Shown one piece after another: positions 6,149-38,543 of a stretch of DNA of 39,463 nucleotides. Origin of the DNA: a virus (Duplodnaviria > Heunggongvirae > Uroviricota > Caudoviricetes); IMG/VR virus record IMGVR_UViG_2875722834_000003, positions 1 to 39,463 of that record; one strand, given 5' to 3'. Below the pieces are notes generated by a model that searched no databases, was not told the origin of the DNA, and saw only the letters and a list, made by a program, of their open reading frames with translations. Position 1 is the stretch's first letter. Every line of letters begins with the position of its first letter. The position numbers and the translations under genes were made by a program.

Positions 6149-6753
6149 TAAGCAGCAGCTCCTTCTAATTCGTCTCGTCTGATGTTGTAAACGTCCTGCG
6201 CTTTGTGCTGCTCCGGTGTGCCTTCGAGCATCTTCCACGCTTTGGCGAACGCCTGTTTAAGCTCTTCCACGGTGTTTTTCTGCATTGCTGCGTCAGTGAA
6301 TGCTTTTAGAACCTGTTCAGGTGTAGGTGATGGTTTTGATTGCTTTGCTACTGCGTTCTGCTGATGTTTATGCTCGTCTGTATCTGCATCTTTCGCATCA
6401 TCAATGCCGAACAAACCATTGAGGCAATACTTGCGTGCATAAGAGCTTGTAGCTCCCGTAACTTGTGCAGAATCCATCCCTTTCTTGCTTTCTTCCTCTC
6501 GTGCAAGAGCGGTTGCCGTATGGCTGTTTTCGCCATCGGTAATAGTTGCCGTGGCTTTCACGTAATACCGATCACCAATCAGCACAACTTCATCGCTGAT
6601 TGATAAAAACAGGCCATTCAGTAGCGGCTTAACGCCTTCAAGAATGTCTTCGCAGCTTCTGTATTTATATTTACCGAATGAGTTGTACTGATTCTTTGGC
6701 GCGTTCAGATTCTCCTGAATAGCTGCCAGTCTTGCGTAAAATTCTTTGCTCAT
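6148..6753 (-). CDS. erf: Erf, essential recombination function single-strand annealing protein (P22 type)
   Basis: ORF track 6148..6783 begins at TTG; ATG at 6751-6753 gives MSKEFYARLAAIQENLNAPKNQYNSFGKYKYRSCEDILEGVKPLL..., matching recalled P22 Erf. Confidence 0.8.
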   Translation of the reverse strand: MSKEFYARLAAIQENLNAPKNQYNSFGKYKYRSCEDILEGVKPLLNGLFLSISDEVVLIGDRYYVKATATITDGENSHTATALAREEESKKGMDSAQVTGATSSYARKYCLNGLFGIDDAKDADTDEHKHQQNAVAKQSKPSPTPEQVLKAFTDAAMQKNTVEELKQAFAKAWKMLEGTPEQHKAQDVYNIRRDELEGAAA

Positions 6754-6854
6754 ATGTTTGTTCTCAGAATGGACATTCCCCAAGGAAATAACGCTGGTTT
6801 AATACTTCGACTCGGGACAAATTAAGGCATACCCGCATTCCTTCGCGGTCGCCA

Positions 6855-7013
6855 TTATGGCGATACCAGAGAGCTTTCTGCGTGTACATGCGTCTCTGTA
6901 ACTTGCTCTCCTTCACTGTGGTTGCAAGTGACATGAATATCTCCTTCGTTACCGATTAATTCTTTCATATGACGAATGAATTCCTCGTCTGACCAGTTAT
7001 CTGTAAAACTCAT
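6855..7013 (-). CDS. Hypothetical small protein (52 aa) in the kil/arf position
   Basis: ORF track 6855..7043 starts at TTG; ATG at 7011-7013 (MSFTDNWSDEEFIRHMKELIG...) overlaps the cIII-like stop (ATGA). Confidence 0.4.
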   Translation of the reverse strand: MSFTDNWSDEEFIRHMKELIGNEGDIHVTCNHSEGEQVTETHVHAESSLVSP

Positions 7014-7180
7014 GGACGGCCTTGTTGTTTCAAAATATCCCAAAGCTTTTCGAGCAAACTTTTCATTCTTGGTTGTTTAAAGTCTGCTCCGGTTAAAATA
7101 TTTTTTCGTGAATGCTGTACCGATAAAATCGGGTTGAAAGGGCGAACCGATGCCGCCCCTGCAATAGCGAACTGTTGCAT
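7010..7180 (-). CDS. cIII: CIII-like protein (FtsH inhibitor family)
   Basis: ORF track 7010..7285; ATG at 7178-7180 with AAGGAG 7 nt upstream; 56 aa MQQFAIAGAASVRPFNPILSVQHSRKNILTGADFKQPRMKSLLEKLWDILKQQGRP, same pattern as lambda CIII (MQYAIAG...LLERI...ILNQPG). Confidence 0.6.
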   Translation of the reverse strand: MQQFAIAGAASVRPFNPILSVQHSRKNILTGADFKQPRMKSLLEKLWDILKQQGRP

Positions 7181-7374
7181 AGGATGCTCCTTCTTTTTGA
7201 TTGCATAACGAAAACGCCTCGAGTGAAGCGTTATTGGTATGCATATAAAAAGGCCCTCACACTGGAGGGCAAAGAAGATTTCCAATAATCAGAACAAGTC
7301 GGCTCCTGTTTAGTTACGAGCGACATTGCTCCGTGTATTCACTCGTTGGAATGAATACACAGTGCTTATTCATA

Positions 7375-7845
7375 CTAATAAAACACCCAATTTTCTGTTT
7401 CTTGGTTGTGTCCAAAGTTATATTCAATATCTGGTGTTGATGTATCAATATTCTTCATCCCATCAACAAGAGTTGATACAACAGCCAAATCTTGTTTGAT
7501 TCTCATCAAATGGTATTTCTTCCGGCGCAATAAACTTTCAATGGCAAGTTTCTTCGTCGGGAACGCAAAAGATCTTTCTGCATTTTTTGCTACTTTCTTA
7601 ATTGCATATCTATTTCTCCTTTGTTTCCATTCCTGTAACCACTGATTTGGTGCTGGTTTAAAATTAACAATCCAATGCGCAGGAACCAACCATGCATAAT
7701 GCTCTGTCTGATGAAAAGCTATATATTGAAGTGCGAATATTTTGATTCCATCTTCTTCAACTGTCGCTTGGAATCTCCAGAAAACAGGCATTCCATCATG
7801 TTCAGTTTCTGATTCAGGAAAAGGTACGCTCCATGATTTTGTCAT
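7375..7845 (-). CDS. Hypothetical AT-rich accessory protein (156 aa), unknown function
   Basis: ORF track; ATG 7843-7845 with GAGGTGAGAT leader; sampled lines are about 33-37 % GC against about 48 % in N; no motif recognised. Confidence 0.65.
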   Translation of the reverse strand: MTKSWSVPFPESETEHDGMPVFWRFQATVEEDGIKIFALQYIAFHQTEHYAWLVPAHWIVNFKPAPNQWLQEWKQRRNRYAIKKVAKNAERSFAFPTKKLAIESLLRRKKYHLMRIKQDLAVVSTLVDGMKNIDTSTPDIEYNFGHNQETENWVFY

Positions 7846-7925
7846 ATCTCACCTCAAATAATTCAGTGCAGTGTTTATTCTGTTGTTTATGCCAAAAGAA
7901 GGCCGACTATGCGGCATAATTATTT

Positions 7926-8114
7926 TTAACTATCATCAATACATGGCACTTTATTCCAGTCGATATCGTTTTTATTGTCGTCCCACATGTCTTTGTTTTT
8001 GTATTTCTCGCTACATCCTAGGCAAATGTTGTATGGCCTACCGATAAGGTTTAACGAAATACGTTGCATTTCATTTGATTCAAACATGTATCCACAGAAC
8101 TGACATTTATGCAT
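7926..8114 (-). CDS. Hypothetical zinc-ribbon-like small protein (62 aa), immediately downstream of N
   Basis: ORF track; ATG 8112-8114 with GGGGTGAGAT leader, 3 nt after the N stop; CxxC (CQFCG) and CxxC (CLGCS) pairs; AT-rich. Confidence 0.6.
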   Translation of the reverse strand: MHKCQFCGYMFESNEMQRISLNLIGRPYNICLGCSEKYKNKDMWDDNKNDIDWNKVPCIDDS

Positions 8115-8117
8115 ATC

Positions 8118-8450
8118 TCACCCCTCATACAGTAGCTTACTGCCTGATTTCATTTTCTGGCGACCAACACAAGTCACCCCCATTTCACTGCGTGGCTTGC
8201 TGTACCATGTGCGCTGATTCTTGCGCTCAATACGTTGCAGGTTGCTTTCAATCTGTTCGTGGTATTCAGCCAGCACCGTAAGGTCTATCGGATTCAGTGC
8301 GCTTTCTACTCGTGATTTCGGTTTGCGATTCAGCGAGAGAATAGGGCGGTTAACTGGTTTTGCGCTTACCCCAACCAACAGGGGATTTGCTGCTTTCCAT
8401 TGAGCCTGTTTCTCTGCGCGACGTTCGCGGCGGCGTGTTTGTGCATCCAT
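8118..8450 (-). CDS. N: Antitermination protein N (lambda type)
   Basis: ORF track 8118..8540 starts at TTG; ATG at 8448-8450 gives MDAQTRRRERRAEKQAQWKAANPLLVGVSAKPVNRPILSLNRKPKSRVESALNPIDLTVLAEYH..., matching recalled lambda N; AGGAGA leader. Confidence 0.9.
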   Translation of the reverse strand: MDAQTRRRERRAEKQAQWKAANPLLVGVSAKPVNRPILSLNRKPKSRVESALNPIDLTVLAEYHEQIESNLQRIERKNQRTWYSKPRSEMGVTCVGRQKMKSGSKLLYEG

Positions 8451-8560
8451 CTGGATTCTCCTGTCAGTTAGCTTTGAGTAACGCGCCGTGATGCTTATCT
8501 CCACGGTTGCTGTCTTGCAGCTGCATTTCGCGCTACTCAAAGCTTTCTGCTTTGAATGCT

Positions 8561-8591
8561 GCCCTTCTTCAGGGCTTAATTTTTAAGAGCC
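8561..8591 (-). promoter_or_regulatory. nutL (boxA plus boxB) for N antitermination
   Basis: Minus-strand RNA reads GCUCUUAAAAAUUAAGCCCUGAAGAAGGGC; boxB GCCCTGAAGAAGGGC is the reverse complement of 8561-8575. Confidence 0.85.
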
Positions 8592-8630
8592 TCACCTTCA
8601 TGGTGGTCAGTGCGTCCTGCTGATGGCTAG

Positions 8631-8695
8631 ATAATCACAAATTGTGTTCGTGCTGTCAACACGAAATGTGATTGTTTTTATCACAACACGTGTTT
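8631..8695 (-). promoter_or_regulatory. pL promoter with three oL operators (non-lambda specificity)
   Basis: Minus-strand -35 TTGACA (8654-8659) and -10 GATTAT (8631-8636), 17-bp spacer; 17-bp pseudo-palindromes at 8633-8649, 8658-8674 and 8679-8695 with half-site AA(T/A)CACA. Confidence 0.6.
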
Positions 8696-8734
8696 TCATT
8701 GATTTTTAAGGTAATTTAATTTTCTTTGGGCAAC

Positions 8735-8766
8735 AAAAAACCCGCCGAAGCGGGTTTGATGTTTTT
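8735..8766. terminator. Bidirectional intrinsic terminator between cI and pL
   Basis: AAACCCGC-CGAA-GCGGGTTT perfect hairpin flanked by an A-run and a T-run; in the leftward sense it ends the cI transcript. Confidence 0.6.
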
Positions 8767-8780
8767 AAGTGGCGGGTATA

Positions 8781-9422
8781 TCAGGAGAATTTCATCATCA
8801 TCTGCACTGCTACGCCGATTATCTTGCAGTTGCCGTCGATTGGGATCAACGGATAGGCAGGGTTAAGCCCTTTCAGGTATTTGTTACCGCCATCAATGAT
8901 TAGCTTCTTGAACGTGGCTTCATTAGCATCTGTCAGCTTCGCAACTACCAGGCTTCCATTAACGGCTTCCTTTCCAGTGTCGAACAGAACCAGCATACCC
9001 TCAGGAACGCTAAGGCCGGTAGGAGCTGTCATTGAGTCGCCCTGAACCCTGAGCCAGAAGGCGTCACCGACAACGTGACAATCTGATTCATACCACTCAT
9101 CCACTGCCTGAGGGTTGTACGGCTCTACGGCCTCACTCCATGCACCTGCGCTAACCCAGCTAATCAACGGAAACTTTTCCCCTGGCTTGTATTGTCCCTG
9201 ATAGTTGTCGCCAAAAAGCAGTTCTGCCGGAGCGACGCCCAAAGCTTTAGCTATTACCTCTGCGTCATCAACACTAACGCTTCTGGTTCCTGATTCATAG
9301 TTGCCGATCCGAGATTGTGAAGCCCAGCCGCAAAGCTCCGCCAGAGCCTTCTGTGAAAGCCCTTTATCTTCCCGTAATCGCTTGATACGCGCGGCGATAG
9401 TTTCTGTTCTGTTCATGCGCAT
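8781..9422 (-). CDS. cI: CI-type prophage repressor (HTH plus S24 LexA-like autopeptidase)
   Basis: 213 aa; N-terminal HTH (LSQKALAELCGWASQSRIGNYESG); Ala-Gly cleavage site (VSAGAW); Ser in GDSM and Lys in VVAKL; divergent from cro across three operators. Confidence 0.85.
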   Translation of the reverse strand: MRMNRTETIAARIKRLREDKGLSQKALAELCGWASQSRIGNYESGTRSVSVDDAEVIAKALGVAPAELLFGDNYQGQYKPGEKFPLISWVSAGAWSEAVEPYNPQAVDEWYESDCHVVGDAFWLRVQGDSMTAPTGLSVPEGMLVLFDTGKEAVNGSLVVAKLTDANEATFKKLIIDGGNKYLKGLNPAYPLIPIDGNCKIIGVAVQMMMKFS

Positions 9423-34850: not shown

Positions 34851-34872
34851 TATTTTCTCCGGAATGTTTATT

Positions 34873-37020
34873 ATGCCAGAACAATTATACAACGTTGTTG
34901 TTTCACAACCAAGTCAGTTATTTACTTTAGCTCGCTCGTTTAAAGCAAATGCCAATGGCAAAATTTATATCGGTAAAATTGACACTGACCCTGTAAATCC
35001 TGAAAACCAGATTCAGGTTTATGTGGAGAACGAAGACGGCTCTCACGTTCCTGTATCCCAGCCAATCATCATTAACGCCGCTGGTTATCCGGTATATAAC
35101 GGACAGATTGCCAAATTCGTTACCGTGCAAGGCCATTCTATGGCTGTTTATGATGCATATGGTGCTCAACAGTTCTATTTTCCTAATGTGCTTAAGTATG
35201 ACCCTGACCAGTTCAGGGCAATTATAGAGTCACCAGAAGGTGCTGGACACGTAGGATATCAGTATCGCAGGAATACAGGTGCGACCATGAGAATGGTAAG
35301 CGATGTGCTGGATGAGCGTGTCAGCCTTTGGGATTTTCACTGCGATTCATCAGGTAACGTAATTCAGCCCGGGCCAACTGTGGATAGTCGGCAGTACATT
35401 CAAAAGGCTATTGACGCGATATACGAAGCTGGCGGTGGAACACTAATTATCCCAACGGGAACATGGTATCTAAACTCGTATGGTGTTCCAGATAAAATTT
35501 CTAACTATGGTGGAGTAATCCACTGGCGCTCTCGTGTCAATATTCACTTTGAAGCCGGTTCTACGCTAAAGCTGACAAACTACTTCAATGAACGCGGCTA
35601 TTGCGTTATCTGTGGTTTTGACGGTAATGACCCCGCAACGTCTGGCGATTTGCGCGATGCAATGATTACGGGTAATGGAACCATTCACTGCGGGGACAAT
35701 ATACAGGCGGTGGGAGGCTCGCTAGCATATGCGATAGGCACTGGGAGATCATACAACGTAAGCGTAAGGGATATACACATTACTGGTGGGGACCTGACTT
35801 GGGCCGTGACACTTGGATGGAATGGTTATGGCAATAATACTGTTGTAGATGGGGTCACTGTTACTGAGGTTAAGAAGACTGAGGTTGCCCGTAACGTTGA
35901 CCAGTCCCTCTTCTATGTGGGGTGTCAGTTCTCTGGTATACAGAACTGCTATATGAAACCTTCTGAATCAGGGTTGGCCGCAAAAATATCAGCAGCAGTG
36001 GAACTTCACCAGTCTGGCACTTTTTGCCTGAACAACCAGATGTATGGATTCATGCGTGGTGTTTATGTTGTTTTGCACGGACGTGAAACGGCAGGCAGCG
36101 GTCTATTCATGAACAATATTCGTGTATCTGGTAACACTGCGTACATTAATGGTCAGTTTGTGACTGTAGGTGCGGATAGTATAGATTTTGATACTCATGT
36201 TTCTGATGTAATTATATCCGATAACATTTGTACCATTATGAACCCTGTAGACTCTGCTCCATTGGTTAGATGCTTTATATCATCTGACTTGTTTGTAGAG
36301 GCCCCGCCGGATAATGAAACTGCGCGCGTACTGGTTGATGGGAATATCTTCTTAGCGCCAACAACTACCCCAGACAGTTTATTTTTCTTTTACAGAGTAA
36401 GCAGCCGTGGGTTTTACTTTAGCAACAACATGTGTGATTGCCGTCGTATAATTTCTGGGGATGGGGCCGGCACTGGTATTGTAGAACTACGCGATATAAT
36501 CTGGGACGCATCCAATAAGATTGGGCCTACTTGGATAGGTCAACGTGGCGGTAATGCGAACATGTTTGAGTTTTACGTCGCCAATATTTTACGCTGTAAA
36601 TTTGAAATATCTATGCCATATGTGGACACTAGCATGGCTAGTATTTTCTACGCGCCAGATACGGCCAATATAACGTTTACAGTAGTCAAAGTTGATCCAG
36701 AAAATATACCATCTTCTGTAACTGCAGTTAGCATCTCAGAGGCTAACAAAAACCGGGGAACAAATTACTTTGAGTTCCCGGAAACTATATCCTTCTCATC
36801 TTTCAACACCGCGGGAGCAGTATTTTGCTACAGCACATCAACTAACTATGCCTGGTGTGGAAGTGCAACGGCATTGTCAAAGTCAGGAGTTTCTGGGCTG
36901 GTAACTCCTGGTGAATATGGTGTCAAAGATAACGGTCAGCTTGGTGGGGTAGGATATAATGATACAGGCGCAGCCAGGAACTGGAGCCAGCGTGTTTTAT
37001 TAAAAAGCGCAATAGAATAA
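34873..37020 (+). CDS. Tailspike protein (P22-type head-binding domain plus beta-helix receptor-binding/depolymerase domain)
   Basis: ORF track 34864..37020; ATG 34873 chosen by alignment to the P22 tailspike N-terminus (NVVVS..., [33 protein letters not shown]); the remaining about 600 aa differ from P22. Confidence 0.85.
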
Positions 37021-37055: not shown

Positions 37056-38543
37056 TTATTTTTTGTATACCAGTATTGTCATATCTCCCTTATTTAAAAC
37101 TTTTTCAGGCTTCCCATTTTTAGATGAAATGGCGTTGATACACGACTGTATGTCTCCGCACTTTTCATGCCCATCAATAGCGATAAAGTATTTTCCATTT
37201 GATGGCATTGCTTCTTTACTGTACCAACTTCTCATGGTTTGATATCGAGGTGAGTTAAAATCAATAGACCCATTTTCAGAAATATCTACAGGTGCGATAA
37301 CTACCTCCCCATTGGAAGCCCAGAATGTAGTTAGGCTTTTATTCCAGTAGTCACCATAACCATAACTCAAATTATTATCTAGTAAAAACGCAGAATAATC
37401 CTTTATCTCCCGTTCAGAATCTTCGTAAGTTTTATTTCCAAAGTTAAAGGTTATAGCGCTCGACAGTACAAATAAAATGCAAATGGCATATGCTAGCCAT
37501 TTTGTCATTCTGCTATGAGCAACTGAATATACTATGAACACAAAAGGTGCAATATTCACAAAAAAGCGAGGTATAGGCTGGCTTGGGTCTGGATTGCTTA
37601 CTGTATAAGCTGAGATAATTCCAGCGGCGGAAAGTAGGGATAGCATAAAAAAATAACTAGAACTATCTTTCCTCAGAATCCCTGTTATGCATACATAACA
37701 AAATAACCCCCCCACAAGAATAAATGAGGCTATATATAGGGAGTGCTGCCTGAGGAAGAAAATGTTAAACATTTCACCAACCGTGAGAATCAGTTGATGT
37801 GCGTTCCCCTGCATTGTAACAAAATCAACAATATTAAAAGGTTGAGAGTCGATTCCCATTAATTTTGGTATTGTATGATTCAGAGCAATACCATAAAAAA
37901 TAGCAAGGAGAATGAAATTTACTAATTTTGTTTCTTTTCTGATGACAAAAATGAGTTCAGTAATCAGAATTGGAAGGAGATAAGTAGGCGCAGCCCACAT
38001 ATCTGAGGAACAAACTAATAACCCAAAAATGCCAACTATGGCATATGATAAAAGCCCTTGATCTCTATGTGCTTTCATTGCCATAAGGCATGTTAGCATT
38101 CCAAAAGCAACAGTAGAGTAGTGAGCAAATGGATGCTGAACAAATCCATCTGTCCAATATATGTGCGGCAAAGCAGCAAGAGGCACTGCGCAAACTAGTA
38201 ATGAACTTCGCTTGTTTAATTTCTTTGATATTGTAGATGCGATAATTATGACGCTGAATGCAAAAAAAGCAGATCCAAATATCAGCATTGGAGCGCCATA
38301 ACTTCCTAATATCAAATAAAACAGAAAGTATACAGGGTACAATGTAAAGTACCAGTTATCCGGTGTCGGGTTCCAATCAGTAAGAGACTTGAAACCGTGT
38401 TCCTTAAACTCAAGCCATACAACAGGACCATTTACTCCATCAGCATCTATTCTGAAGTATATATAAGAAAGATAAGAGATAGATATTGCGCATAAGAGCA
38501 ATATTACAATCTCTATTGATTTTTTATTTATTAGGTGTTTCAT
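37056..38543 (-). CDS. gtrC: GtrC-like serotype-specific O-antigen glucosyltransferase (polytopic membrane protein)
   Basis: 495 aa, multiple hydrophobic segments plus a C-terminal soluble domain; directly downstream of gtrB with ATGA overlap; about 27-33 % GC in sampled lines. Confidence 0.6.

Follow-up and report, generated by a model that had tools for sequence, protein, structure and literature searches.

The window (that is, the whole stretch of 39,463 nucleotides that was analysed) is a P22-like phage mosaic, the nearest relatives of which are Huey, CUS-3 and Kapi1. The locus described here belongs to its pL operon; from the early promoter to the cIII-like gene, all the features of this locus are read from the minus strand. 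A pL-like sigma-70 promoter (8631–8659; TTGACA, 17 nt, GATTAT) is the sole promoter-like site found between 6800 and 8900 by a simple consensus scan, a type of scan that a weak or non-canonical promoter in AT-rich DNA could escape. It is followed by the N antiterminator gene (8118–8450), present as the mEp213/Louie allele and ending with a TGA stop at 8120–8118; by orf62 (7926–8114), coding for a 62-aa zinc-finger protein with a CxxC-23-CxxC arrangement; by a conserved intergenic element of 62 nt, spacer C (7864–7925); by a short leader (7846–7863) forming the left edge of the next cassette; by orf156 (7375–7845), coding for a protein of 156 aa; by element E (7245–7365), homologous to bsq4, a boundary sequence of Sf6, together with the terminator tL2A, and with a hairpin at 7270–7253; and finally by a cIII-like gene (7010–7180), the next conserved gene of the operon, which closes the variable slot. 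No terminator was found by the scan downstream of pL before 7270, and no Rfam match was obtained within 6500–9000.

The first of the two cargo genes begins almost within N: the leader TATGAGGGGTGAGAT (8115–8129) is the true 3' end of N, carrying the Shine-Dalgarno sequence GAGG and the TGA stop, the Shine-Dalgarno sequence of orf62 sitting in the last codons and the stop of N, and only 3 nt separate that TGA from the ATG of orf62. The second gene follows after an intergenic stretch of 80 nt. The 3-nt gap and the position of the pair between N and cIII, both reported in the initial annotation made from the letters alone, are borne out by this map, the cIII-like ORF starting at 7180. The same holds for the near-identical leaders, since both ATGs stand directly behind the 11-nt sequence GGTGAGAT; a repeat finder extends this likeness to a direct repeat of 25 nt (7836–7860 and 8105–8129, 76% identical, 269 nt apart). 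The low GC content of the insert was also found as described: 36.2% over 7375–8114 (35.4% in orf62 and 36.5% in orf156), compared to 51.1% in N and 47.8% in the window, a value as low as this being reached in just 0.67% of 740-nt windows.

The protein encoded by orf62 carries the two CxxC pairs previously read from its translation, as C4-x2-C7 and C31-x2-C34; the four cysteines are invariant in eight aligned homologues and are also kept in further homologues from viral contigs. The homologues share 66–84% protein identity and, in the comparison with the divergent ones, pN is 0.11–0.21 with a saturated pS of 0.78–0.90; on these figures orf62 is a real gene under strong purifying selection. It is the same as mEp213_050 and Louie_CDS0039, and it falls into phrog_19863, a family with no assigned function (E 5.6e-47 over residues 1–62 of 62). 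The gene is missing from the RefSeq annotation of all six complete E. coli genomes in which it occurs. The structure model (pLDDT 84) shows a pair of zinc knuckles, then a helix at 32–40 and an acidic tail containing Trp, and the fold predicted with this good model confidence is treble-clef-like; the best fold matches in the PDB are RING, FYVE or L24e fingers, at TM 0.42–0.51 and E 0.35–0.66, none of them significant. DUF7167, also of 62 aa and found in the same slot, was considered as a possible homologue and rejected, being unrelated and having no Cys.

The orf156 product has, as had been noted from its translation, an N-half with six Trp and many acidic residues and a basic C-half, in which the stretch RRNRYAIKKVAK...RRKKYH is found. 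Over its 156 aa it is 99.4% identical to HK97 gp45 and 100% identical to 933W L0079, and it is 99–100% identical to ORFs of H-19B, phi24B, BP-4795 and many Stx1/Stx2 phages; by these identities it is already known, being catalogued as HK97 gp45 / 933W L0079, even if an annotation of function is absent from every record of the protein that was examined, and no functional study of L0079/933W, of WP_000167595 or of HK97 gp45 was found in the literature. It belongs to phrog_1636, again a family with no function assigned (E 2.7e-112 over residues 1–156 of 156), and its close homologues form 33 clusters in Enterobacterales. In an alignment of 20 homologues of 55–85% identity, 40 columns are invariant, a degree of conservation that marks orf156 as a real and conserved gene. 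When 1.84 billion representative proteins were searched with a profile, 87 relatives were found, and the distant ones also match phrog_13631 and phrog_25384; judged by these profiles, orf156 belongs to a wider family of phage proteins of 130–160 aa covering three PHROGs and present in phages of Enterobacterales, of Vibrio and of marine gammaproteobacteria. Two further proteins, HK225_039 and Sf6 gp34, were examined as relatives and rejected, both being unrelated.

The model of orf156 is poor (pLDDT 60), with a beta-rich N-half; a long helix is predicted at 98–130, with a local pLDDT of 72–82, where RRKKYH is followed by an a/d heptad pattern (L113/I116/L120/V123/V127/M130). A profile search of the PDB with the family returned coiled-coil and bZIP chains at only E 0.2–1.4. 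The combination of a basic segment and a heptad helix suggests a dimer that could interact with nucleic acid or with a protein partner; since the model as a whole is poor, this reading is drawn from the sequence pattern.

That neither protein could be matched to a family, as the initial annotation had stated, was confirmed by searches of Pfam, NCBIfam, PADLOC and the PDB sequences, in which nothing rose above noise; a profile built from 50 distant relatives of orf156 gave no significant match in Pfam or in the PDB either. In PADLOC-DB v2, orf62 has no match and orf156 matches only Cas1_II (E 0.018, 12 bits), which is at the level of noise. The Ral profile PF11058, to which Sf6 gp35 scores 3.8e-47, does not match orf62 or orf156 at Pfam E <= 1; no match to Ogr_Delta (PF04606) or to DksA/TraR was found for orf62 at the same threshold; and no match to characterised anti-defence inhibitors (Acr, Ocr, Ard, Tad, Gad and others) was obtained in the Pfam, PDB and BFVD searches. 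No membrane segment and no known effector domain is predicted in either protein. The structure modelling recommended at the outset yielded a treble-clef-like model for orf62 and a poor one for orf156, and the fold searches gave no significant match.

The likeness of the two leaders had been taken as a sign that the genes arrived together; the junctions found in related phages give it another origin. In Dewey, a lambda-type N gene ends with ...AAACCACTTATTTGA, and the GGTGAGAT-ATG of orf156 comes directly after; in Dewey and in 933W the 3' end of N runs into orf156 as ...CCACTTATTTGAGGTGAGATATG followed by orf156, to be compared with GCACTGAATTATTTGAGGTGAGATATG, the leader found in the window. 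The 18-nt sequence preceding orf156 in the window, AATTATTTGAGGTGAGAT, matches the 3' end of N at 15 nt and is the relic of the end of a lambda-type N gene; the true end of N in the window (...CTGTATGAGGGGTGAGAT) runs into orf62. The shared leader is, on this comparison, an N tail serving as a portable ribosome-binding site: each cassette keeps the last 15–20 nt of an N gene, with the Shine-Dalgarno and ATG context, as its left edge, orf62 standing behind the real end of N and orf156 behind a relic of 15–18 nt from an older N–orf156 junction. This origin accounts for the match between the leaders; a carried N tail is no signature of joint acquisition, and the claim drawn from it is not supported. 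In 933W (2506–2563 of locus L001), in phages of the HK97 type and in others, a different N allele is followed by a lambda-type N 3' relic of 59 nt (ending in ...VTCVGRQKMKLGSKPLI and a stop) and then by orf156; this relic reads as the fossil of an earlier exchange of N alleles in phages of the 933W/HK97 type.

The borders of the cassettes can be followed in a BLAST map, which divides the minus strand of the locus into segment A, the 3' end of N (8200–8112), segment B, orf62 (8114–7926), segment C, the conserved 62-nt spacer (7925–7864), segment D, the leader with orf156 (7861–7375), and segment E, the conserved structured element (7365–7247). In Louie, VREC0864, PSJ-12 and Sf6 the site is empty, and C abuts E with a single GCACTG; in the window, this hexamer is present at both ends of segment D, at 7869–7864 and, as its direct repeat, at 7365–7360, the two copies bracketing the orf156 cassette (7366–7863). 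A single copy at the empty sites and two copies here indicate that orf156, together with its leader, is an exact indel of 498 nt.

Spacer C is found beside different genes: the gene upstream of it is gene 34 in Sf6, DUF7167 in 14EC047 and orf156 in Dewey, and the spacer is also present in Louie and, twice, in mEp213 (the pL operon of the latter contains two different N genes). Its predicted RNA fold is no better than that of shuffled sequences (z -0.4), giving no sign of a terminator or a structured RNA, and it is a probable crossover site. Indeed, mEp213 matches the window at 99% over 8200–7879 and 14EC047 matches it at 99% over 7915–7200, the two matches overlapping inside C. The simplest history that these matches allow would be a single crossover in spacer C, in which a phage with the order N–orf62–C (mEp213/Louie type) and a phage with the order C–orf156–E (14EC047 type) would have given the arrangement seen in the window.

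Such a history fits the model in which the mosaicism of lambdoid phages comes from exchange at conserved intergenic boundary sequences (summarised in PMC3233612), and spacer C and the 3' end of N act, like bsq4 of Sf6, as conserved joints beside variable genes. The present locus differs from that model where C meets the relic of N, with microhomology only (CACTG..TATT), so that at least one step looks like illegitimate rather than homologous recombination. As for element E, which Sf6 annotates as bsq4 plus tL2A, the window is 98% identical to Sf6 over 7365–7247. The RNA of 7245–7372 (minus strand) folds at -43.6 kcal/mol (z -4.5 compared to shuffled sequences), with two hairpins, the first of 12 bp, ahead of the terminator. 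Identity of the element reaches 96–100% in Sf6, Louie, 933W, Dewey and mEp213. Besides being a joint for recombination it may have a further role, such as a site of RNA processing or of regulation.

The proposal that the two genes came as a module can be examined directly from their distribution. Among 5426 complete E. coli genomes, orf156 is present in 598 (about 11%) at 834 places, only one of which, in ECONIH4, has orf62 adjacent, and orf62 is present in six; among 50,697 phage records, orf156 is found in 83, orf62 in six (three of mEp213, Louie and two of HK225) and both in none. At the 77 usable orf156 loci from viral contigs, orf62 is adjacent upstream in two and further upstream in one; N, of two families, is directly upstream in about 70%, and assorted small genes in the others. 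Conversely, orf156 is near none of the 13 divergent orf62 homologues found in the viral-contig scan, and orf62 occurs without orf156 in mEp213, Louie, HK225, ECONIH5 and VREC0864. Its downstream neighbours are of at least six different kinds, including a 92-aa ORF in mEp213, an ORF similar to Sf6 gp33 in Louie and VREC0864, a 95-aa ORF in ECONIH5, an IS element in PSJ-12 and other ORFs in the divergent relatives. The two genes are clearly separable and form no obligate module; the conservation of the pair as a unit in related prophages, which had been put forward as a check, is largely absent, with orf156 lacking orf62 at 833 of the 834 places and orf62 homologues lacking orf156 in 13 of 13 cases, and their arrival together as a module is not sustained.

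The picture is complicated by the allele of orf62 found here, which in its identical form is widespread in draft assemblies (1015 blocks): orf156 is adjacent to it in nine of 21 distinct loci and one gene away in two more, and these orf62–orf156 loci lie behind three different N alleles. A description of the pair as almost unique, drawn from the single adjacency among the 5426 genomes, was therefore dropped, the genes being adjacent in about 40–50% of the distinct contexts of the identical orf62. The pair is a frequent haplotype within a young orf62 lineage, and a functional link between its members retains a small residual probability. In one E. coli assembly (GCA_000351345.1, scaffold KB732598.1; 1207–3740 of locus L016), N–orf62–orf156 is present twice in tandem with a period of 1351 nt, either through a genuine duplication or through an artefact of the assembly.

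Other occupants of the slot between N and cIII are Ral in Sf6 and, in other prophages, Nmad5, DUF5484, DUF7167 and several uncharacterised genes. The N–orf156 junction itself is a hotspot of insertion (for instance in locus L011 at 2064–2252, and in L054, L063, L071, L082 and L086), where different prophages carry DUF7167 (62 aa), DUF5484 (45 aa, the same as Sf6 gp36), Nmad5 (207 aa) or uncharacterised ORFs of 114, 109 and 75 aa. Ral (PF11058) is present in none of the 118 orf62/orf156 loci that were fetched, an absence compatible with an alternative occupancy of the slot, which is no proof of an equivalent function. The Ral of lambda and Sf6 occupies the same operon slot as orf62 and orf156, with no sequence similarity to either; its gene is small, early and dispensable, and the defences of the host decide what it is worth (PMC10695390). 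The two genes have the features of lambdoid pL accessory genes, namely the position between N and cIII, no promoter of their own found by the scan, and presence or absence among relatives; by position and distribution, their initial description as uncharacterised accessory genes in the variable N–cIII slot of the pL operon is upheld.

As to expression, no promoter was found by the consensus scan on either strand between pL and tL2A, and no terminator was found there; orf62 and orf156 should accordingly be transcribed with N and be repressed in the lysogen, and they would be made together with N right after infection or induction. Given the gap of 3 nt, the translation of orf62 is probably coupled to that of N. 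The two genes are probably independent accessory genes stacked in an N-antiterminated pL operon, each of them a "first gene after N" cassette. In terms of function, a host-directed or anti-defence role is plausible for both; our best guess, of low confidence, is that they would be dispensable host-directed early effectors, possibly of counter-defence, acting independently of each other, the likeliest target being a host defence or some other process of the host, as for Ral in this slot; orf62 would act as a small zinc finger that binds nucleic acid or a protein of the host or the phage, and orf156 as a dimer through its basic-plus-heptad helix. A bolder version is speculative and on the whole rather unlikely: the orf156 superfamily (phrog_1636, 13631 and 25384) would be a new class of very early effectors, dimeric and with a basic helix, disarming host defence or redirecting host transcription, and most Stx-converting phages would carry it first behind N; separately, orf62 would be a new small zinc-finger cofactor or modulator of N-type antitermination.

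Among the competing explanations, the one that survives best, although it is itself unlikely, takes orf62 as a zinc-finger regulator tied to N and to early transcription, through RNA polymerase, the Nus factors or the nut RNA. All the members of the orf62 family that were seen stand at the end of a pL operon nearest the promoter and, where an N-type gene is recognisable, adjoin it or lie one gene apart from it, on either side; the N families concerned are several and unrelated (N36, N_peptide, Phage_N_antitermin and a 101-aa N with no Pfam match); the short gap that suggests translational coupling to N points in the same direction. RNA polymerase is bound by some small zinc-finger proteins of phages, such as P2 Ogr, and orf62 shares with the proteins of the P2 Ogr / P4 Delta type the four-Cys motif with a spacing of about 23 residues, a size of about 60–70 aa and its nature of early gene; orf62 differs from them, however, in having no Pfam match at E <= 1 to Ogr_Delta, nor to DksA/TraR, its fold matches being generic RING, FYVE and L24e only. 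Moreover, most phages carrying N lack orf62 (present in six of the 5426 genomes, with N-region matches in 2213), and the proximity to N may merely reflect selection for the earliest expression.

Somewhat less probable still is that one or both genes are expressed from the prophage and act in defence or in superinfection exclusion, as lambda sieB or rexAB do. The sieB gene of lambda and P22 lies in the same region of the pL operon, and lambda keeps it in this very slot; an Sf6 gp34-like membrane protein is sometimes found there too, and the AT-rich DNA of the insert is moron-like. SieB, however, is located in the membrane and is expressed in lysogens from a promoter of its own, and it differs in this from orf62 and orf156, the models of which show no membrane helix and which have no promoter-like site in the scan of both strands from pL to tL2A. 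Both genes are co-oriented with N and downstream of it, and should be repressed with pL in the lysogen; PADLOC gives no match and, as stated above, membrane segments and known effector domains are not predicted in the two proteins. With no internal promoter found by the scan, an exclusion function in the prophage appears improbable. That orf62 and orf156 constitute one co-acquired functional module, such as an anti-defence pair or an effector with its partner, is the least probable of these explanations, for the similar low GC, the common 11-nt leader, the association in about half of the identical-orf62 loci behind three N alleles and the tandem scaffold are set against the occurrence of orf156 without orf62 in 83 of 83 phage records and nearly everywhere in complete genomes, that of orf62 without orf156 in five named phages or strains and in all 13 divergent homologues, the account of the leader as an N 3' relic, and the borders of orf156 as an indel of its own flanked by repeats.

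Under the preferred reading of two independent accessory genes, the locus is ordinary lambdoid mosaicism with two orphan genes, and the pair itself, a recombinant arrangement seldom met, is for that reason of little weight; the locus provides, nonetheless, a clean worked example of the way in which lambdoid cargo is shuffled, with conserved spacers, a leader that is a relic of N and a 6-bp repeat at the indel. The more relevant of the two genes is orf156. In HK97, H-19B, 933W, phi24B, BP-4795 and many Stx1/Stx2 phages the same protein is found in the same post-N position, as the first gene after N; phages of the HK97/933W type differ from the window in having it directly behind N, with orf62 and spacer C interposed here. 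This position and its presence in about 11% of the complete E. coli genomes, combined with the lack of a Pfam family, of a confident fold and of any published function, make orf156 a well-placed candidate for host takeover or counter-defence, and one that concerns medically relevant phages.

Two further features of the window may be mentioned. At 8738–8757, in the interval that separates pL from the end of cI, a GC-rich hairpin with a T-run was called on both strands and resembles a bidirectional terminator. A second spot of low GC is found at 37056–38543 (minus strand), where a gene convergent with a 718-aa tailspike-like gene (34864–37020) codes for a protein of 495 aa whose sequence looks like that of a multi-pass membrane protein; this gene is probably an O-antigen-modification moron.
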